Source: Candidatus Omnitrophota bacterium
Lineage (GTDB): Bacteria > Omnitrophota > Gorgyraeia > Zapsychrales > Fredricksoniimonadaceae
Direction: 5' to 3'
Assembly (NCBI GenBank): GCA_037141995.1
Contig: JBAXBM010000050.1
Coordinates: 1 to 11,466, forward strand
DNA: 11,466 nucleotides
The stretch's first letter is position 1, and each line of letters begins with the position of its first letter. The position numbers were made by a program, and so were the translations under genes. Positions 2,172 through 10,745 of the stretch are shown here, piece after piece. The notes below the pieces were generated by a model. That model was not told the DNA's origin. It made no database searches and saw nothing but the letters and a program-made list of their open reading frames with translations.

Positions 2172-2990
2172 ATGAAAATCATTCATAATCTGGTGTACTT
2201 TTTTTTATCAATAGCCCTGGCACAGTTGTTAACGGGAATTTTCATCCCAGCCTGTATCATCCTTTCTATTTATCTTCGAATGAAGAAAGGGATATCTCTT
2301 AAGGAATTCTGGAAGCATGTCCCTAACATTTATGTTTCTATGATTTCGAGTATTTACCCGTTGGTATTTCTGGGATTTCCCGCCTTGCGCCTGATGGCCA
2401 AGAATGCCGGGAAAGGCTCAGGCGGAACGGCCCCTTTTATCATCGATACGGCGAAGCTTCAGCCCGGGGATGTGATCCTGACGGGCAAGGAGCGTACGGG
2501 TGCGATACAGCTGGCGAATATCCTGTCGGCGGGGATCGAGCATTGCCAGTGGACGCATGCGTGCATTTATATCGGTGATGAAAAGGTCATTGAGGCCCAG
2601 GCCAATGGCAAGGGTGTTATTCAGACCAATCTGCGCACATTTTACCTGGACCAGGGGTATCGCCTGAAAGTTTTAAGGCATAAGTTTCTGCCGGTAGACA
2701 AGATGTCCAAAGTGCTTGCCTATTGTGCCCAGGAGAAGGATAAGAATGCTTCTTACGATACCTGGGGCGTTTCCTTTTATGTCCTTGCCGCCATGATCCC
2801 GCCCATGTTCAGCGCCTGGCTTGACGGTGATTTCGCCGAGAAGTTCTTTGATGTCAGGGATGCTTACTTTTGCTCCGAACTTATTGCCGACGCTTTCAAA
2901 GCCGCTGACTGTGCCGTATTCGGCGAAAAAAGCTGGCGTGTTAAGCCTTTGGATTTCGCCTTTAATCCGGTGTTTCATGAGGTGGTGTGA
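2172..2990 (+). CDS. Membrane-anchored permuted papain-like (NlpC/P60-related) hydrolase, YaeF/YiiX family (Pfam PF05708-like)
   Basis: 272-codon ORF with a strong SD (AAGGAG just upstream of ATG 2172). Two N-terminal hydrophobic helices. Then LQPGDVILTG...WTHACIYIGDEKVIEAQ...ASYD...YFCSELIADAF: the His precedes the Cys and the CSEL motif is present, as in the permuted YiiX family. It lies only 41 nt after the AAA+ gene. Confidence 0.78.
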   Translation: MKIIHNLVYFFLSIALAQLLTGIFIPACIILSIYLRMKKGISLKEFWKHVPNIYVSMISSIYPLVFLGFPALRLMAKNAGKGSGGTAPFIIDTAKLQPGDVILTGKERTGAIQLANILSAGIEHCQWTHACIYIGDEKVIEAQANGKGVIQTNLRTFYLDQGYRLKVLRHKFLPVDKMSKVLAYCAQEKDKNASYDTWGVSFYVLAAMIPPMFSAWLDGDFAEKFFDVRDAYFCSELIADAFKAADCAVFGEKSWRVKPLDFAFNPVFHEVV

Positions 2991-3000
2991 GGCGGTGGGG

Positions 3001-3069
3001 ATGAAATATTTTCATGGTTTTCTGCTTTTTTATGTGGCATACTTGTTTCTGGTGGGTTTTATCCAATAG
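3001..3069 (+). promoter_or_regulatory. Conserved intergenic element, copy 1 (shared with 4750-4817); candidate promoter/leader of the SPFH gene pair
   Basis: 3003-3069 aligns with 4753-4817 at roughly 83% identity (hand alignment, one 1-nt indel). It contains an AT-rich hairpin/palindrome ATGAAA-TAT-TTTCAT (3001-3015), a T-rich tract, and TGGCATACTTGTTTCT (3035-3050), a partial match to the sigma54 -24/-12 consensus TGGCAC-N5-TTGCW. There are exactly 17 nt from the end of the element to the ATG in both copies. Confidence 0.5.
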
Positions 3070-3086
3070 ACCAAAAGGACAGATAT

Positions 3087-4067
3087 ATGCAGAATGAACA
3101 GGGATTGATCTTTAAAGGGATATATGAGTTTGAAGATCCGCTTGGCGTTCTTGTTGCCGCTAAGGTTCCGTCGGTTGGTACCTTGGATCTTTATTCCGGG
3201 ACGGCTGTTTTGGTCAAGGCCAATCAGTGCGCGCTGTTTATTTATAACGGCAAGATCGCCGATATTTTGATGCAGGGCTTGCACGAGGTCAAGACCGAGA
3301 ATTTTCCGCTTTTAACGCGGCTGGCCAACTGGCAGTTTGGGTTTGAAAGTCCTCTCCGGTGTGAGGTATGGTTTTTTTCTGGCGCTGTTTACACCAACAG
3401 GCGCTGGGGAACGTCTCAGCCAGTGATCTGTGATTTTCCGGATCACGGGATAGTGCCGGTGAGGGCGTACGGGATCTTTAATGTGGTCATGCGTGATCCC
3501 AATAAATTTTTTATGACGTTGATCGGGACGCGCAATGCGTACGATATAACTGAACTTGAGGGTCTGGTTCAGGCTCAGATCACGGAAATTCTTCCTGCGG
3601 CCATGCATGTTGTCCCGTCACTTCAGGACTTAAACAAGTCACAGACGCTGGTGGCAAAAGAACTGCAGGGGTTGGTCAATAAAACGATCGAGCAATACGG
3701 CATTGAAATTGTGAGCCTGCAGGTGATCTCGATGATCCCGTCGAAAGAGATCATGGAGGCGCTCGATGCCAAGGCGTCCATGAACATCATCGGCAATAAA
3801 CAGGAATATCTGCTTTATAAGGCGGCCAACAGCTTGATCGGGAGTCATGAGGGTGGTCATGCGAAAGGTTCCAGTGATTCCATGCAGTTGATGATGGGGT
3901 TGATGCTCGGGAAAAGCCTCCTGGATGCCAAGGAAAAAGAGCACACCATGCTGCTGAAAACAGAAGAAGCGCCTCCGATGATTGAAACAAGGTCATGTTC
4001 AAAATGTAAAGCTGTTGTCAAAGCCAGCGACAAGTTTTGTGCGTCCTGCGGAACGGAGCTGAAATGA
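3087..4067 (+). CDS. SPFH/Band-7 family protein with C-terminal zinc ribbon (COG4260, Pfam Band_7_1, B. subtilis YdjI-like)
   Basis: 326-codon ORF with SD AAGGA about 8 nt upstream. N-terminal pattern GTAVLVKANQCALFIYNGKIADILMQGLHEVKTENFPLL...GFESPLRCEVWFFS...VRAYGIFNVVMRDPNKFF is typical of the YdjI-like SPFH family. The C-terminus CSKCKAVVKASDKFCASCGTEL is a CxxC...CxxC zinc ribbon. Confidence 0.85.
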   Translation: MQNEQGLIFKGIYEFEDPLGVLVAAKVPSVGTLDLYSGTAVLVKANQCALFIYNGKIADILMQGLHEVKTENFPLLTRLANWQFGFESPLRCEVWFFSGAVYTNRRWGTSQPVICDFPDHGIVPVRAYGIFNVVMRDPNKFFMTLIGTRNAYDITELEGLVQAQITEILPAAMHVVPSLQDLNKSQTLVAKELQGLVNKTIEQYGIEIVSLQVISMIPSKEIMEALDAKASMNIIGNKQEYLLYKAANSLIGSHEGGHAKGSSDSMQLMMGLMLGKSLLDAKEKEHTMLLKTEEAPPMIETRSCSKCKAVVKASDKFCASCGTELK

Positions 4068-4738
4068 ACTTTGATATCATATGCCCCAATTGTGGTGCGG
4101 CATCTTCCATTGTGGTGGGTGTTTGCCCGTATTGCAAGACGGTCTTGTCTATTAATTCTGAGAAAGGGGATCATTCTCTGTCGGCGGTGAAAGCAGCCCA
4201 TGAAGCCGGAAAAACGGACAGGTCTCTGTCACTGGTGACGGCACTTGAACAGGAAAAGCCGGAGCTGCTGGATAATATTGAATTTGTTTTGTTGTATACC
4301 AGAATTCTTTTTGAAGTGGATGGGCCTTCCAGCAAGATCAAGTCTTTGCTGACCAAAGCCCTGATCCTGGCGCCCGGTCATCCTGATGTGTTGGAATATC
4401 TGGAAGTGATCGAGGCCGAGTCCATGATGACCCGGGAGCCCAATGATGAAGGTGAACAGCGTCTCATGCGACTCATTCGCCGCTCGCCCAATAATGTTTA
4501 TGCGTTGTTTTTCCTCGGGAGTCATTTGTTTTGGGTTCAAGGAAACGGTGGTGCTGCCCTGAAGTATCTTGAGCCGTGCGTCAGGTTGCGCCCTAATTTT
4601 ATACGGGCCAAGGCCTGTTTGGCGATGATCTACAAGGAATTAAACAAGCCGGATATGGCTAAAAGATTTTTTGATGAGTGTGCCGCCAGCACATCGAGCA
4701 ATAGGACGAAGTCATTTTTCAAAAGGCTTACGGATTGA
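4064..4738 (+). CDS. Zinc-ribbon plus TPR-repeat protein
   Basis: I place the start at ATG 4064, forming an ATGA overlap with the upstream stop (TGA 4065-4067). The ORF track's 4037 start would add 9 codons overlapping the SPFH gene. N-terminus CPNCG...CPYCKTVL is a zinc ribbon. The C-terminal half has TPR-like helical repeats (ALKYLEPCVRLRPNFIRAKACLAMIYKELNKPDMAKRFFDECA). Confidence 0.8.
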   Translation: MNFDIICPNCGAASSIVVGVCPYCKTVLSINSEKGDHSLSAVKAAHEAGKTDRSLSLVTALEQEKPELLDNIEFVLLYTRILFEVDGPSSKIKSLLTKALILAPGHPDVLEYLEVIEAESMMTREPNDEGEQRLMRLIRRSPNNVYALFFLGSHLFWVQGNGGAALKYLEPCVRLRPNFIRAKACLAMIYKELNKPDMAKRFFDECAASTSSNRTKSFFKRLTD

Positions 4739-4749
4739 TGCTCTAGCGG

Positions 4750-4817
4750 CCAAAATATTTTTTGGTTTTTTGCCTTTCTATATGGCATACTTCTTTCGGG
4801 TGGATTTTATTCAATAG
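4750..4817 (+). promoter_or_regulatory. Conserved intergenic element, copy 2; candidate promoter/leader of the 703-aa gene
   Basis: Homologous to 3003-3069. Hairpin/palindrome CCAAAA-TATT-TTTTGG (4750-4765), a T-rich tract, and TGGCATACTTCTTTCG (4783-4798). There are 17 nt from the terminal CAATAG to ATG 4835, the same as copy 1. Confidence 0.5.
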
Positions 4818-4834
4818 TCTTAAGGGGGTTAAAG

Positions 4835-6946
4835 ATGTTGGAAAAACTGTATTCATTTGCCGGATTCCGGAAATTGATTTGTTGGTTGATGGCTGTTGTT
4901 TTTTTGACGGGATCAGTGATGCCCTTATATGCGCAGGGTGTGGCCGGCCTTTCATCTTCCGGGATGATGAACGTAAGCCGGACATTCACGCCGCCGATTG
5001 TCAGGGGGATGACGATTGATCCCAAGGATCCGTTTGCTTTTAAGTTTCTGATGGACCGCGGGGATGACAAGGGGTTGTCCCTGGAGGCTCGGACGGCAGT
5101 TTATGAGAAGTTGATCAAATATTTCATGGCGTCATTGGCGGTGCCGGAAGAAGATGTCTGGGTCAACCTTTCTCCCTATGAAGGGGATCGTTTGATCGCA
5201 GATAATTTTGGCATGACCGTTATGGGGCGCGACCTTCTGGAAATGGATTATGCGTTAAAGCGTGTCACGGCATCGTTATTTCATCCTGATCAGGAGCCGG
5301 GGAAGGCGTTCTGGAAGAAGGTTTATCAGGCGGCCTATGAACGTTATGGGACAACGGATGTGCCGGTCGATACGTTCAACAAGGTCTGGATCGTTCCGAG
5401 TGAGGCAAAGGTTTATGAGGACGGCAATTCTGTTATTCTGGTGAAAAGCCATCTCAAGGTCATGCTGGAGCAGGATTATTTGGCGCAGAAAAAGAATGCC
5501 GCGGTACACCCCGATAACAAGAATGATAAAGATTCCCAGTTTTCCCGCGATATTGTGCGTGAAGTCATGATTCCTATTCTTGAAAAAGAAGTCAATGACG
5601 GCGAAAATTTTGCAGTGTTACGTCAGATCACCGCATCGCTGATCCTTGCCACCTGGTATAAGAAAGCCTGGAAAGATGTTTTGTTGAACCAGGGATATAC
5701 GGATCATTCCAAGGTCAAAGGCGTTGACCAGGATCCTGCTAATAACCAGATTATCTACAACCAATATGTGGAAGCATTCAAGCAGGGCGCTGTGAATCTG
5801 GTCCGTGAAGAATATGATACGTTATCGCAGGAAATGATGCCACGGAAATATTTCTCCGGCGGTTACGGCACAAAGATGACAACAGATGATGGGCAGACAA
5901 CGTCTTTACAGCAACGATTAGAAGAAGTATCTCAGTCGCCGATGTTGGATCCAAAGAAAACGGAGTTGGTGGCGGCGTCTTTGATGCCAACGGCAAGAAC
6001 AACAGTTGCCGGGTTATTCCGACCTGTTTCACGCTTGGCGCTTCTTATTGTGTTGTGGACAGGGGCTTTCTTTCAACCAACGACAGCGGCTTTAGCAGAA
6101 TATAGAAGTACACAAAGTTTTACATATACGAACGGTTCTAGAACTCAAAAAATGGAGTTGATTGTTACTGATCCTGGCGTTGTTGTGACAGATGTGTGGG
6201 ATACTCAATCAAAGATGCTACGTGATTTCACGGATACTGTAAATACAGTAATTATAATGTCTAGGAGTAATGAGTTAGGGGCCTTAGATACACTTGGGAA
6301 GCTTGAAGCAAGAGTCAAAGCAGGGAAGGCCTCAGAAGAGGCGATATTGAAGGGGTTGGTTCAAAAGCAATTTGTTGCTTTATTAATGAATGGGAAAAAG
6401 CCTGTTGATATATCTCCGTTTCTTCAAGCGTATACTGATTGTTTGCAAGAGATAGGGCGGGTACGAAAGACTATAGACAACAATAATAAGATACGGGCTT
6501 ATAATGAAGCTGTGGAGCAGAATAATGCTAAAGCACGAGAATTCAATAAAAATCAAGCGAAGTATTCCTCTGTTGTGAAGGGGTATGTTGAGATTTTTAA
6601 TAAGAAGCAACGTGACCCAGTAGAAATGAAAAAATTATCGGTAAGCATAGGTCAACTTCTTGCGCAACCAGATTTGCCTTCAAATTTCAGGGCAACTCTT
6701 CAGCAAATTAAAACATGGATAGATAAGGCGGAGAATGTAAAGAAACCAAAGCTTGTGACAGATAAGAATCTTGGTGGTATTGATTTGAATGCCAATTCTT
6801 TTAACCTTGAGGTTGAATCGCGTAAGGAAGCCAGGGGCTTGGTGTCTCCTGTTTTGGTTGATCTTGTTGCCCTTGAAGGCTTGAGCCCACGGATATTGTC
6901 CGTCACGTCCGCCAGTGAATATGTAAAGATGTTTTCAGGAAAGTAA
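4835..6946 (+). CDS. Large secreted or membrane-associated protein of unknown function, with an N-terminal signal peptide and an internal hydrophobic segment
   Basis: 703-codon ORF with SD AAGGGGG 6-7 nt upstream. The N-terminus MLEKLYSFAGFRKLICWLMAVVFLTGSVMPLYAQG looks like a Sec signal peptide. A second signal-peptide-like segment lies at aa 384-421. The C-terminal third is Lys/Asn/Gln-rich and looks coiled-coil-like. No family recognised. Confidence 0.8.
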   Translation: MLEKLYSFAGFRKLICWLMAVVFLTGSVMPLYAQGVAGLSSSGMMNVSRTFTPPIVRGMTIDPKDPFAFKFLMDRGDDKGLSLEARTAVYEKLIKYFMASLAVPEEDVWVNLSPYEGDRLIADNFGMTVMGRDLLEMDYALKRVTASLFHPDQEPGKAFWKKVYQAAYERYGTTDVPVDTFNKVWIVPSEAKVYEDGNSVILVKSHLKVMLEQDYLAQKKNAAVHPDNKNDKDSQFSRDIVREVMIPILEKEVNDGENFAVLRQITASLILATWYKKAWKDVLLNQGYTDHSKVKGVDQDPANNQIIYNQYVEAFKQGAVNLVREEYDTLSQEMMPRKYFSGGYGTKMTTDDGQTTSLQQRLEEVSQSPMLDPKKTELVAASLMPTARTTVAGLFRPVSRLALLIVLWTGAFFQPTTAALAEYRSTQSFTYTNGSRTQKMELIVTDPGVVVTDVWDTQSKMLRDFTDTVNTVIIMSRSNELGALDTLGKLEARVKAGKASEEAILKGLVQKQFVALLMNGKKPVDISPFLQAYTDCLQEIGRVRKTIDNNNKIRAYNEAVEQNNAKAREFNKNQAKYSSVVKGYVEIFNKKQRDPVEMKKLSVSIGQLLAQPDLPSNFRATLQQIKTWIDKAENVKKPKLVTDKNLGGIDLNANSFNLEVESRKEARGLVSPVLVDLVALEGLSPRILSVTSASEYVKMFSGK

Positions 6947-6999: not shown

Positions 7000-7052
7000 G
7001 GCGCTGTTCAGGCGGGATTAATGGCTGGCGGCGCTATGAGAAAATCGTAGAT

Positions 7053-7181
7053 GTTTAGCGCCTTGTGTGCTCGCCGCGCCGAGCGCCGAGTGCTTTTTCG
7101 CCTGGAACGAGGGGGTTTATCCCCCGAGAGAAGCCGAAAGAGTGGCGCGGTATGGCAGGCGAGAAATCGAATGCGCTAAAC
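7053..7181 (+). repeat. 129-nt structured intergenic element, copy A (candidate cis-regulatory or REP-like structured RNA; family not recognised)
   Basis: About 82% identical to 8965-9095. Five nested stems: P1 7053-7061/7173-7181, P2 7070-7075/7158-7163, P3 7076-7080/7144-7148, P4 7093-7100/7135-7142, P5 7111-7115/7121-7125. Four compensatory changes relative to copy B. Confidence 0.7.
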
Positions 7182-8960
7182 ATGCATAAAAAAACTTCGT
7201 TTCTTCCCATGTATCTTGATGAGATGGCGGCTCGGGGGTGGGGTGAGCTGGACGTTATTATCATCAGCGGCGATGCGTATGTGGATCATCCTTCCTACGG
7301 CACGGCATTGATCGGGCGTCTCCTGGAAAGCAAGGGTTATCGCGTGGGTATTATCGCCCAGCCGGACTGGCGGTCGCTGGATGATTTTACGCGCCTGGGG
7401 CGTCCGCGTTTGTGCGTTTGTGTGACGGCGGGCAATGTGGATTCCATGGTTGCCCATTACACGGCCAACAAGCGGCGGCGGCAGGGGGATGATTTTGCGC
7501 CGGGCGGCAAGGACGGCTTGAGGCCGGATCGTGCGGCGATTGTGTATGCTAATCGTGCTAAGGCGGCATTCAAGGGCCTGCCGGTGATCCTGGGCGGTGT
7601 TGAGGCCAGCATGCGGCGCTTGGCGCATTACGATTACTGGGATGATGCGGTGCGGCGTTCGGTATTGATCGATGCCAAGGCGGACATGATCATTTACGGC
7701 ATGGCAGAGCGGCCTGTTGTGGAAGTGATGGCGCGGCTGGCGCAGGGTGAGGCGATCGCAGCGATCCGTGATGTGCGCGGCACCGTGGTGCGTGTGAAGC
7801 CGGCGGAATTTCCTGCGGGGACGATAGAATTGCCGTCGTTTGAAGATATCAGCCGTGACCCTGAAATTTTTAACCAGGCATTTCGCCTGGCTTATGCGGA
7901 AATGTCGCCGGAAGACGGCAAGCCTTTGGCCCAGCGGCATGCGGATCAGTGTGTGCTGCAATTGCCCCCGGCATTGCCATTGACACCTCAAGAACTTGAC
8001 GCCGGTTATGATCTGGCGTATGCGCGCACATGGCATCCGTCGTATGATGCCTTGGGCGGCGTGAAGGGTTTAGAGACAGTGCGCTGGTCGATCACAGCGG
8101 TGCGCGGCTGTCCCGGGGAGTGTCATTTTTGCGGGATCACGTTCCATCAGGGGCGGATCGTGCAGAGCCGGAGCGTGGCGTCCATTGTGCGGGAAGCTGA
8201 AGGCCTCGCGCGCGACCCGGCGTTTCGGGGGACGATTCAGGATGTGGGCGGGCCGACAGCGAATTTATACGGTGCCAGTTGTGCCAATTGGAATAAAGGC
8301 CGGGTATGCCGCGGCAAGCAGTGCCTGATGCCATCGAAATGCCCGTCGCTGGATCTGGGGTGCCGGGAAGCGGTTTCCTTGTATGAAGCGATACGGCGTG
8401 TGCCGGGCATAAAACATATGTTCGTGCAGAGCGGTTTGAGGTATGATCTCTTGCTCGAACCGGCGGCGCTCGATTATTTCAAGGTGTTATGCCGTTATCA
8501 TGTCAGCGGGCAGATGAAGGTGGCTCCCGAGCATACATCCGACGAGGTTTTAGCGCTCATGAACAAGCCGCCCTATGCGCGGTATGAGGCTTTTGTCCGG
8601 CTTTTCAATGAGATCAATGCGGGGCTTGGCAAGAAGCAGTTTCTGGTGAATTATTTTGTCAGCGCGCATCCCGGGGCAGGGCTTAAGGAAGCGTTTGATT
8701 GTGCGTCAATGCTTTTATCCCGCGGGATGCATCCGGAACAGGTGCAAGATTTTCTGCCTTTACCCATGACGGTATCGGCGTGCATGTATCACACGGGGAA
8801 GCATCCTCTGACGGGCAAGAGTGTTTATGTGCCGCGGAAAGACAATGAACGCGCGATGCAGAGGGCCCTTGTGCAGTCGCAGAATCCTGGTAATGCGCCC
8901 TTGATTGACAAGGCGCTTAATATTTTAGGTAAACAGGGAGTTAAGAAAAAATTTAAATAA
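7182..8960 (+). CDS. ygiQ: YgiQ-family radical SAM protein (UPF0313)
   Basis: The N-terminus KTSFLPMYLDEMAARGWGELDVIIISGDAYVDHPSYGTALIGRLLESKGYRVGIIAQPDW closely parallels E. coli YgiQ (FLPMSREEMDQLGW...VTGDAYVDHPSFG...RVGIIAQPDW). Radical SAM CxxxCxxC motif CPGECHFC at 8109-8132. The start is uncertain. The ORF track begins at 7065, but codons 1-39 are a read-through of the repeat element. ATG 7182 is the first Met after it, and ATG 7152 is an alternative. Confidence 0.88.
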   Translation: MHKKTSFLPMYLDEMAARGWGELDVIIISGDAYVDHPSYGTALIGRLLESKGYRVGIIAQPDWRSLDDFTRLGRPRLCVCVTAGNVDSMVAHYTANKRRRQGDDFAPGGKDGLRPDRAAIVYANRAKAAFKGLPVILGGVEASMRRLAHYDYWDDAVRRSVLIDAKADMIIYGMAERPVVEVMARLAQGEAIAAIRDVRGTVVRVKPAEFPAGTIELPSFEDISRDPEIFNQAFRLAYAEMSPEDGKPLAQRHADQCVLQLPPALPLTPQELDAGYDLAYARTWHPSYDALGGVKGLETVRWSITAVRGCPGECHFCGITFHQGRIVQSRSVASIVREAEGLARDPAFRGTIQDVGGPTANLYGASCANWNKGRVCRGKQCLMPSKCPSLDLGCREAVSLYEAIRRVPGIKHMFVQSGLRYDLLLEPAALDYFKVLCRYHVSGQMKVAPEHTSDEVLALMNKPPYARYEAFVRLFNEINAGLGKKQFLVNYFVSAHPGAGLKEAFDCASMLLSRGMHPEQVQDFLPLPMTVSACMYHTGKHPLTGKSVYVPRKDNERAMQRALVQSQNPGNAPLIDKALNILGKQGVKKKFK

Positions 8961-8964
8961 TGGT

Positions 8965-9095
8965 ATTCAGCGCCCTGTGTTTTCGCCGCGCCAAGCGCCG
9001 AGTGCCTTTCCGCCTGGAACGAGGGGGCCGCAGCCCCCGAGAGAAGCCGGAAGGGTGGCGCGATAAGGCAGGCGAAAAGATCTGATGCGCTGAAC
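8965..9095 (+). repeat. 129-131-nt structured intergenic element, copy B
   Basis: Same architecture as copy A: P1 8966-8973/9087-9094, P2 8980-8987/9071-9078, P3 8988-8992/9057-9061, P4 9005-9012/9048-9055, P5 9023-9027/9034-9038. It starts 5 nt after the ygiQ stop and ends 31 nt before the ABC-F start. Confidence 0.7.
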
Positions 9096-9125
9096 GTGTG
9101 CAATTAAACAAGAGAGGTAATCAGC

Positions 9126-10745
9126 ATGATCACGGTTAATAATGTTACGCTTCAATATGGCCAGCGGAAACTTTTTTCCGGTGTTAATATCAGTTTCTCC
9201 CAGGGTAATTGCTACGGCCTTATCGGCGCCAATGGATCCGGCAAATCAACGTTCCTGAAGATCTTGTCCGGCGAGATTGACTCAACCGAAGGTACAGTGG
9301 CCATTGATCCCGGCAAGCGCATGTCGGTGTTGCGCCAGGATCATTTTGCGTTTGATGAGCAGACGGTTTTGACAACGGTCATCATGGGGCACAAGCGGCT
9401 TTTTGATGTCATGCTGGAAAAAGACGCCATTTATGCCAAGGCAGATTTTACTGATGCCGACGGCATGCGTGTTTCCGAGCTGGAAGCCGAGTTTGCGGAA
9501 ATGGACGGGTGGAACGCGGAATCTGATGCCGGCAAACTCTTGGCGGAACTGGGGATCGCGACCTCAGCGCACACCCAGCAGATGAAACAGCTCGAGGGCG
9601 GCGACAAGGTGCGTGTGCTGTTGGCCCAGGCGCTTTTTGGCAATCCCGATATCCTTCTTCTCGACGAGCCGACGAACCATCTTGATGTCGAGACCTGCAT
9701 GTGGCTGGAGGAATTTCTTTCCCGTTTCGAGAATACGGCGATCGTTGTTTCCCATGACCGCCATTTTCTCGACAATGTGTGCACGCATATCGCCGACATT
9801 GATTTCGGGAAGGTTAAGATTTACTCCGGCAATTATACGTTCTGGTCGGAATCAAGCCGCCTCGCCGCAAAGCAGCGTAGTGAAGAGAATAAGAAGGTCG
9901 AGGACCGCCGCAAGGAATTGCAGGATTTCATCGCACGCTTCAGTTCCAATTTGTCAAAGTCGCGTCAGGCAACAAGCCGTAAAAAGATCCTCGAGAAACT
10001 TGTCATCGAGGACATTGAACCGTCTTCGCGTAAATATCCGTATGTGCATTTTGAGCAGGAACGCGAGGCCGGCAACGACCTCTTGGGGGTGGATGATCTG
10101 GCCAAATCTTTGGACGGGCAGGTCATGTTCAAGAAGTTATCATTTACGATTGAAAAGGGAGACAAGGTGGCTTTTGTGGGATCCAATGATCTGATCAAGA
10201 CGACACTTTTTCAGATTCTCATGGGCGAACTTCCGGCGGATAAAGGGACGTTCAAGTGGGGCTTCTCGACAAAGCGCGCCTATTTCCCGAAAGACAATGC
10301 CGAATATTTCAAGTCTGATCTCAGTGTCGTTGACTGGCTGAGGCAGTATTCCGAAGAGAAGGCCGAAGTTTTTATCCGCGGCTTTTTAGGCAAGATGCTT
10401 TTTACCGGTGAAGAATCCCAGAAACCGGCCAAGGTCCTTTCAGGCGGCGAGAAAGTCCGCTGTATGCTTTCACGCATGATGCTCATGAAGCCCAACGTTG
10501 TGATTCTCGACGAGCCGACCAGTCACCTGGATCTCGAGTCGATCACCGCACTCAATGAGGGGCTGAAGCGCTTTAAGGGCACGATCCTTTTCTCGTCGCA
10601 TGACCATGAGCTGGTGCAGACCGTCGCCAACCGCATCATCGAGATCACGCCGGCGGGCATGATCGACCGTACGGGTACAACGTTTGATGATTATCTGTCC
10701 GATGAACGCGTCAAAACCCTGCGGGCAGAGTTTGCCAGGGTTTAA
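9126..10745 (+). CDS. ybiT: ABC-F family ATPase with two nucleotide-binding domains, YbiT-like
   Basis: 539-codon ORF with SD GAGAGG about 8 nt upstream. NBD1 has Walker A GANGSGKST (9225-9251) and Walker B ILLLDEPTNHLD. A Lys/Arg-rich inter-domain linker (SRFSSNLSKSRQATSRKK) follows. NBD2 has signature LSGGEKVR and Walker B VVILDEPTSHLD. Overall collinear with E. coli YbiT (NVT.Q.G...YGLIGANGSGKSTF.KIL.G...LRQD.FAF.E.TVL.TVIMGHK). Confidence 0.88.
   Translation: MITVNNVTLQYGQRKLFSGVNISFSQGNCYGLIGANGSGKSTFLKILSGEIDSTEGTVAIDPGKRMSVLRQDHFAFDEQTVLTTVIMGHKRLFDVMLEKDAIYAKADFTDADGMRVSELEAEFAEMDGWNAESDAGKLLAELGIATSAHTQQMKQLEGGDKVRVLLAQALFGNPDILLLDEPTNHLDVETCMWLEEFLSRFENTAIVVSHDRHFLDNVCTHIADIDFGKVKIYSGNYTFWSESSRLAAKQRSEENKKVEDRRKELQDFIARFSSNLSKSRQATSRKKILEKLVIEDIEPSSRKYPYVHFEQEREAGNDLLGVDDLAKSLDGQVMFKKLSFTIEKGDKVAFVGSNDLIKTTLFQILMGELPADKGTFKWGFSTKRAYFPKDNAEYFKSDLSVVDWLRQYSEEKAEVFIRGFLGKMLFTGEESQKPAKVLSGGEKVRCMLSRMMLMKPNVVILDEPTSHLDLESITALNEGLKRFKGTILFSSHDHELVQTVANRIIEITPAGMIDRTGTTFDDYLSDERVKTLRAEFARV

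Follow-up and report, generated by a model that had tools for sequence, protein, structure and literature searches.

The window analysed here, a complete contig of 11,466 nt from the MAG of an uncultured bacterium of Candidatus Omnitrophota (locus tags WCI27_), raises the question of why two adjacent and unrelated genes are preceded by nearly the same stretch of noncoding DNA, and what this stretch does. All features described below lie on the forward strand. The first of the two genes (3087-4067) encodes a 326-aa SPFH protein (Band_7_1, E = 7.5e-45) with a C-terminal zinc ribbon. Its stop codon overlaps the ATG of a gene for a 224-aa zinc-ribbon/TPR protein (4064-4738) in an ATGA arrangement, so that the TPR gene is the second gene of the first operon. 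The same gene call was obtained in another sample (L001), and the SPFH-TPR pairing is conserved in SPFH orthologs. The second gene (4835-6946) encodes a 703-aa protein with a signal peptide. The first-pass annotation had treated the two genes as an SPFH pair, which is incorrect: only 3087-4067 codes for an SPFH protein, while the 703-aa protein has no Pfam, NCBIfam or PDB match and no SPFH similarity (best E = 0.64 between the two proteins). The genes upstream of the two copies do not align either (C92-like versus TPR protein, best E = 0.91).

The 703-aa protein is a member of a very large paralog family that is specific to Omnitrophota. It has 2786 database relatives, essentially all of them from this phylum and with several per genome. 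The N-terminal part of the family consists of a signal peptide and a domain of ~340 aa that is about 50% identical among members and carries motifs such as WVNLSPYE and PRKYFSGG. It is followed by a variable middle and a conserved C-terminal GGIDLN motif of ~50 aa. Elsewhere the contig encodes a DUF4143 ATPase (934-2130), a C92/YaeF-like amidase (2172-2990), a YgiQ-type radical SAM protein and an ABC-F ATPase. Upstream of the DUF4143 ATPase gene we noted TTGACA (828-833) and, after 16 nt, TAAATT (850-855), with TGTG at 845-848.

Extent and register of the repeat

The two upstream segments pair without gaps at an offset of 1748 nt. Copy A (3003-3069) and copy B (4751-4817) are identical at 53/67 positions (79%), and an ungapped comparison of 3010-3078 with 4758-4826 yields 55/69 (80%). 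The repeat had been described before as 3003-3069 and 4753-4817 with 83% identity. The repeat itself stands, but these values do not: copy B starts at 4751, and the higher identity is only reached with a small indel at the 5' edge. Outside the module the similarity drops to 25% in the upstream region and to 34% in the coding starts downstream. The 17 nt between module and ATG are 41% identical, in keeping with the earlier remark that they are unrelated apart from the Shine-Dalgarno sequence (in copy A, AAGGA at 3075-3079 for the ATG at 3087). For comparison, the best 69-mer self-match in the whole window reaches 57 matches, against 55 for the module pair, while the best 69-mer pairs in ten dinucleotide shuffles of the window had 37-41 matches. 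The string TGGCATACTTSTTTC occurs exactly at two sites in the window (3035 and 4783); with up to 3 mismatches allowed there are four matches, compared with 0.55 expected from shuffles.

Both copies sit in the same register. The intergenic region is exactly 96 nt long in each case, the distance from the preceding stop codon (TGA 2988-2990 and TGA 4736-4738) to the start of the copy is 13 nt, and the module occupies positions -84 to -18 relative to the ATG. As had been noticed on first reading, each copy ends in CAATAG followed by 17 nt and the start codon (ATG 3087 and ATG 4835), and a GG dinucleotide lies 51 nt upstream of each ATG. Differences between the copies stay clear of the promoter core, TATRTGGCATACTT being 13/14 identical. 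Copy A was found with identical sequence in two other samples (L001 and L002); ERZ4223863 and SRR8517161 are samples that contain this sequence. These results confirm that the repeat is real and sharply bounded. A coding origin of the repeat was rejected: the open reading frames over the copies (2821-3069 and 4762-5019) are short, spurious and in different frames, and the downstream proteins are unrelated. Exact-pattern scans of a metagenome collection with TTTCNGGTGGNTTTTATNCAATAG and TATATGGCATACTTN{4,8}GGTGGA returned no matches.

Predicted promoter elements in the module and in the paralog family

Comparison with upstream regions of 80 family members and six SPFH ortholog lineages in other Omnitrophota identifies the TGGCATACTT block as the extended -10 part of a promoter of the sigma-70 type, with the general form TTGnnn, ~17 nt, TATA(T/G)G-n-YATACT-T, and we consider it very likely that the module as a whole is a duplicated promoter of this type plus its leader. 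In copy A, the -10 hexamer CATACT (3038-3043), with A at position 2 and T at position 6, is followed by the near-invariant T3044. A TGTG of the TRTG type (3033-3036) lies one base before it, and a -35-like hexamer TGGTTT (3015-3020) is placed 17 nt upstream. Copy B has the same arrangement, with TGGTTT at 4763-4768, TATG at 4781-4784, CATACT at 4786-4791 and then T4792; both copies thus read T(G/A)TG-G-CATACT-T, and the 14-mer of copy B matches the family consensus TATATGGYATACTT at 14/14 positions. The first-pass annotation had found no convincing sigma-70 pair in the block, which is wrong in view of these elements. Its idea that the element signals transcription and keeps a fixed register to the two genes is supported, and its fallback, a binding site for another sigma factor, proved essentially correct.

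The -35 element of the module is weak. TGGTTT agrees with TTGACA at only 2/6 positions and with the family variant TTGTTT at 5/6, and because of this weak -35 a generic sigma-70 scan of the window called neither site. Extended -10 promoters tolerate weak -35 elements; they have been described for Bacillus subtilis and other Gram-positives. The module resembles them in its CATACT, in the T(G/A)TG one base upstream and in an A/T-rich tract upstream of the -35. This tract, a near-palindrome GAAATATTTT (3003-3012) that is conserved between the copies, might act like an UP element; in the window block the possible UP-like tract upstream of the -35-like hexamer reads AAATATTTT. From the -10 assignment it follows that GAAATATTTT would cover about -48 to -39 relative to the predicted start.

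The TRTG/TG element (-16 region, extended -10) is used here as defined in PMC12641261, and according to the same source start sites are centred 7 bp beyond the -10 element. Transcription of copy A is accordingly predicted to begin at 3050-3052, 7-9 nt after the -10, with G3051 or G3052 as the likeliest base, and by the same reasoning that of copy B at 4798-4800. In the mechanism we propose, TGGTTT at -35, T(G/A)TG at -17 to -14 and CATACT at -12 to -7 would be the contacts of an RNA polymerase holoenzyme that most likely carries the primary sigma factor and would start at about G3051 in copy A and G4799 in copy B. The resulting leaders of ~36 nt would begin with GGUGG(G/A)UUUUAU(C/U)CAAUAG and continue into gene-specific Shine-Dalgarno sequences. 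The corresponding conserved leader 5' ends are GGTGGGTTTTATCCAATAG (3051-3069) and GGTGGATTTTATTCAATAG (4799-4817), and 3045-3069 is 21/25 identical to copy B. Both the sigma-factor identity and the start sites are predictions.

The paralog family provides a comparative test of this assignment. We lined up the upstream regions of 80 loci that encode family members in other Omnitrophota genomes. About 60 of the 80 carry a version of TATATGGYATACTT, and in many TTGACA, TTGTTT or TTGATT precedes the YATACT hexamer by about 17 nt. As a guard against circularity, the regions were re-anchored on exact ATACTT alone, which leaves the flanks unselected. This string lies within 150 nt upstream at 37/80 family loci, compared with a chance expectation of 0.044 per locus (p = 8e-29). 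Within the family promoters, conservation is strongest over YATACT-T. In the ATACTT-anchored set, conservation is also seen over TATA(T/G) at -19 to -15 (-8 to -4 from the anchor, 0.5-1.0 bit) and, with a 17-nt spacer, over (C)TTG plus a T-run at -35 (-25 to -17 from the anchor, 0.3-0.7 bit). At the position of the -35 in the window, homologous promoters read TTG(A/T)(C/T)(A/T), and 21/39 anchored family promoters, among them TTGACA and TTGACT, have a TTG with a spacer of 16-18 nt. TG at -15/-14 is present in only 9/39 of them, T-17 in 82% and A-16 in 70% of the anchored homologs. A position weight matrix built from the family promoters scores copy A at 25.0 bits and copy B at 29.3 bits; these are the only hits in the window that reach at least 14 bits. 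The class departs from textbook sigma-70 promoters in its preference for YATACT followed by an almost invariant T (-6), in that TATA at -19 to -16 is more conserved than TG, and, in the window, in a -35 that reads only TGGTTT.

Seven homologs show an arrangement that is especially telling for the -10 box. Their ATG lies 5 nt (L011, L023, L072 and L075) or 7 nt (L013, L044 and L080) after ACTT, that is, 6-8 nt after the hexamer, which implies a leaderless mRNA with the A of the ATG as +1. None of the seven has a Shine-Dalgarno sequence, and their N-termini are signal-peptide-like. In-frame stop codons lie 3-27 nt upstream, except in L080, where the nearest is 96 nt upstream. The geometry of these homologs fixes the identity of the -10 box, and the leaderless layout fits YATACT in this role, with a start ~7 nt downstream. 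These loci thus resemble the promoters of leaderless mRNAs, unlike the two window genes, which are predicted to have ~36-nt leaders and carry Shine-Dalgarno sequences. The promoter class also shares with sigma-70 promoters a TTG-type -35 ~17 nt upstream and, in these homologs, a start codon ~7 nt after the hexamer, as expected for a start site at that distance.

The same comparison bears on the original headline claim, a sigma-54 promoter in which RpoN holoenzyme would bind TGGCAT-N5-TTTC and an enhancer-binding protein would activate it to give a leader of ~25 nt. Sigma-54 recognizes TGGCAC-N5-TTGC, with GG at -24 and GC at -12, the first bases of the two being 11 nt apart, and transcription starts about 12 nt downstream of the GC and about 24 nt after the GG. 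The module does contain TGGCAT-N5-TT-C, identical in both copies and at a plausible distance from the genes, where the geometry of a sigma-54 start would be possible. The likeness is superficial, however. While the GG is present, the -12 GC is TC in both copies, a mismatch (T for G) that had been rightly pointed out, and neither dinucleotide is conserved in the homologous promoters. Among the 39 ATACTT-anchored ones, six have GG at -24, none has GC at -12 and none has both; information content is 0.11 and 0.04 bit at the two GG positions and does not exceed 0.28 bit in the -12 region. In many homologs the sequence is TATAGTATACTT or TGTAATACTT, without any GG, and what is conserved are TATA and ATACTT, elements that sigma-54 does not read. 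In the seven leaderless-type homologs the distance from the would-be -24 GG to the ATG is about 16-18 nt, which puts the ATG upstream of a sigma-54 start and makes such a promoter geometrically impossible there. We found no gene for RpoN or an enhancer-binding protein within the 11,466-nt contig, and a literature search on sigma-54 in the phylum gave nothing relevant. The sigma-54 promoter is refuted on these comparative and geometric grounds, and we regard it as extremely improbable.

SPFH orthologs and the question of a dedicated factor

The promoter class occurs throughout Omnitrophota, where it precedes most members of the huge family of secreted paralogs, with a closely related form, TTGACT-17-TGTGnTATATT, in front of SPFH-TPR operons. 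We retrieved six other SPFH-TPR lineages, whose proteins are 62-73% identical to the window protein. In five of the six, TTGACT or TTGGnn is followed after 17-18 nt by T(A/G)TG-n-TAT(A/T)(C/T)T; the ATG lies about 30-40 nt further on. TTGACT-17-TATATT occurs after TTTTATGTGC in L086 and L091 and after TTTTATGTGG in L095 and L096, and TTTTATGTGG is common to L095 and copy A. The promoter reads TATGGTATTCT in L092 and L094, CATGTTATACTT in L083 and GTATGCTATATT in L084. As the orthologs have the same kind of promoter, that of the SPFH operon is taken to be ancestral and of the sigma-70 type. Conservation does not extend to the GGTGG...CAATAG leader in these lineages.

It is conceivable that the class is read by a dedicated sigma-70-family factor and/or a regulator of TATA-N3-YATACTT, whose regulon would comprise the paralog family and the SPFH operon. 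YATACTT precedes 30/77 family members but only 2/85 neighbouring genes (p = 1e-9), and ATACTT shows the same bias (35/77 versus 5/85 upstream regions, p = 3e-9), while the neighbouring genes are instead enriched for TATAAT (9 forward versus 2 reverse). The near-invariant T at -6 and the stronger conservation of TATA at -19 to -16 than of TG also favour this idea, as does a palindrome, GAAA(A/G)CG(T/C)TTTC, that is present in 16/61 related promoters at a fixed distance of -44/-45 from the TATA block (p = 5e-17). Its centre lies about -61 from the predicted start, and it resembles a class-I activator site. The GAAAACGTTTTC palindrome is absent from the window, though common in related promoters. 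On the other hand, the TTG of the -35, the 17-nt spacer, the -16 region and the hexamer with A-11 and T-7 are all compatible with a primary sigma factor. The same architecture with TATAAT or TATATT precedes SPFH orthologs and other genes, some of which have clear TGTGnTATAAT and TTGACT-...-TATGTTAATTT promoters. A simpler account of the family bias is that the promoter was inherited with the N-terminal module when the paralogs were duplicated. We see in the data a single sigma-70 grammar with a hexamer variant that is typical of the family and would have been passed on with the N-terminal gene module, and a dedicated factor seems rather unlikely to us. For tRNA promoters as a housekeeping reference, the loci contain only three tRNAs, too few for the purpose; the one in L060 reads TTGACA-17-TACTAT.

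A wider form of the same idea is a phylum-wide regulon, in which a dedicated sigma factor or activator would read TTGnnn-17-TATA(T/G)G-n-YATACT-T as a specialised grammar and co-regulate the secreted paralogs and the SPFH-TPR operon, with the GGUGG leader as a signal at the mRNA level. We think this unlikely. Such a leader could for example be a ribosome-binding 5' stabiliser; many genomes have promoters of this kind with the GAAAACGTTTTC palindrome centred near -61 and GGUGGA at the 5' end of the leader.

Similarity of the two copies and its meaning

A shared promoter class does not by itself account for the likeness of the two copies. As a baseline, 1830 pairs of family promoters were aligned on their -10 boxes, and these share 26.2 +/- 4.2 positions out of 69, compared with 55/69 for the window pair (z about 6.9). 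The highest family-promoter pair, an orthologous one, reaches 62, and the next 43. The excess identity of the window pair is found in the spacer (17/22 versus 7.3) and in the leader (21/24 versus 6.9). Constraint on the promoter class alone is thus insufficient to explain the pair, and identity above the class norm points to shared ancestry or to extra constraint. Probably the two transcription units, which lie 1.75 kb from each other, came to share the whole module by copying or homogenisation, in which case both units should receive the same expression signal. The direction and mechanism of copying, like any role of the conserved leader, are matters of inference.

The propagation and reuse of promoters in prokaryotes has been described as putative mobile promoters, PMPs (Matus-Garcia et al. 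2012, PMC3488235; PMC3575422), for which an alignment of at least 50 nt at 80% identity or more and non-aligning neighbouring CDSs are required (PMC3488235). The module satisfies the conceptual definition: within one genome, 55/69 positions are identical upstream of non-homologous CDSs, and the upstream genes are non-homologous too. It differs in other respects. The PMP screen used the fragment from -150 to -50 (PMC3488235), and only about half of the module, at -84 to -18, falls inside it. Only two copies of the module are known, they are adjacent, and they include the 5' end of the leader. With the copies just 1.75 kb apart, mobilisation and local gene conversion are equally likely.

The proximity of the copies could also suggest a functionless remnant of a segmental duplication or of a small mobile or repeat element with no regulatory role, and the fact that only two copies are known, on the same strand and in intergenic regions of equal length, would agree with this. 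We nevertheless find this explanation scarcely credible. The mismatches spare the promoter core, both copies are in exact register with their start codons, both match a promoter consensus that was derived independently from other genomes, and neither terminal inverted repeats nor target duplications were reported next to them. A cis-acting RNA element in the 5'-UTR (GGUGGRUUUUAUYCAAUAG), either structured or bound by a protein, an sRNA or the ribosome, that controls stability or translation could be the real cause of the conservation, as 21/25 positions of the leader part are identical where unrelated promoters of the class share about 7/24. GGTG[GA], often extended to GGTGGAGGTCGT, occurs at the predicted 5' end of 9/61 related promoters, compared with 2.1 expected (p = 2e-4). 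Either copy allows a hairpin of 5 bp (UGGGU-UUU-AUCCA in A, UGGAU-UUU-AUUCA in B), whose pairing is kept at both differences between them; two copies give no power to detect covariation. However, this hairpin is the minimum-energy fold for copy A only, the fold of copy B being different, and the folds are no better than those of shuffles (z = +0.72 and -0.53 for the two copies, and -0.25 and -0.36). Rfam gave no match at E <= 1, and the segment is not conserved in SPFH orthologs. A structured 5'-UTR RNA, the other alternative offered in the first-pass annotation, was therefore rejected for want of a shared fold and an Rfam match. An RNA element would in any case add to the promoter reading rather than replace it, and we hold it to be an unlikely cause of the repeat. 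The conservation of the 19-nt leader and the recurrence of GGTG[GA] make it possible, as far as the sequence can tell, that this segment has a function at the 5' end of the RNA or in the initially transcribed DNA.

The duplicated sigma-70-type promoter itself is an ordinary one, and its value is a practical one. Omnitrophota lack both a cultured model and mapped transcription starts (a full-text literature search on Omnitrophota promoters gave nothing relevant), and, as far as this search showed, the consensus presented here is the first comparative, position-resolved one for the phylum. It includes evidence for many leaderless genes in one family. The locus is a clean example of a promoter and leader common to unrelated adjacent operons, and also a cautionary case, as an extended -10 region that contains TGGCA can mimic a sigma-54 site. 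If the bias of YATACTT towards the paralog family does reflect dedicated regulation, it would point to the control of the most expanded, and so far uncharacterised, protein family of the phylum.

A second, hairpin-forming repeat and further promoter-like sites

The window also contains a second pair of direct repeats, both on the forward strand, whose two copies of about 135 nt (7051-7185 and 8963-9097) are 89% identical and form a stronger repeat than the promoter repeat upstream of the SPFH gene and its paralog-family neighbor. The first copy lies in the 5' region of a gene for a YgiQ radical-SAM protein, the real start of which is probably the ATG at 7184, and the second is located upstream of an ABC-F gene (ATG at 9126). 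For each copy the predicted structure is a single extended hairpin with imperfect pairing, in which 42 pairs form at -64 kcal/mol; between the copies 6 pairs are altered on both sides. A search of Rfam gave no match for either copy, and a covariance model found zero additional copies in 96 related loci that were scanned. We consider the element a candidate for a structured leader RNA or for a REP/MITE-like palindromic repeat.

Two other promoter-like sites on the forward strand of the window follow the same grammar as the proposed promoter in the repeat at 3003-3069 and 4751-4817. One is found upstream of the DUF4143 ATPase gene at 828-855, where TTGACA (828-833) is separated from TAAATT (850-855) by 16 nt that include TGTG (845-848). 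The other (8941-8965; TTAAGA-17-TATTCA with ATGG) is situated directly 5' of the hairpin repeat (at 8966).

An upstream palindrome and the leaders of family promoters

The Omnitrophota-specific family of secreted paralogs has members at loci in other genomes of the phylum (designated by L numbers), and 16 of 61 of its promoters carry the palindrome GAAA(A/G)CG(T/C)TTTC, versus 0.013 expected per locus (L003, L017, L019, L028, L029, L031, L037, L039, L043, L045, L047, L054, L059, L062, L066 and L078). It keeps a constant spacing of -44/-45 to the first T of TATATGG, which centers it at about -61 relative to the predicted transcription start. It looks like a class-I-positioned transcription-factor site. 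The palindrome is absent from the window.

In a subset of the family (L003, L004, L017, L030, L034, L036 and L039), the leader opens, exactly at the predicted transcription start, with the common extended motif GGTGGAGGTC(G/T)T, which resembles an SD sequence yet has no start codon at suitable spacing. At seven loci (L011, L023, L072, L075, L013, L044 and L080), the start codon follows 5–7 nt past the -10 box, without an SD; all of these except L080 have an in-frame stop 3–27 nt upstream of the start. Many family members are probably translated from leaderless mRNAs.

Probably duplicated upstream cassettes

The intergenic regions that hold the two promoter-repeat copies (2991-3086 and 4739-4834) are equal in length, 96 nt each, and in both of them the copy starts 13 nt past the upstream TGA. 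The entire 96-nt intergenic unit may be homologous, with diverged ends.

Elsewhere in the family, near-identical upstream cassettes precede the paralogs at L033 and L046 within one MAG (OFTM38), and another near-identical pair (L056 and L073, 62/69 identical) is shared between related genomes. From these pairs, duplication of a promoter together with the 5' end appears to be common in this Omnitrophota paralog family.
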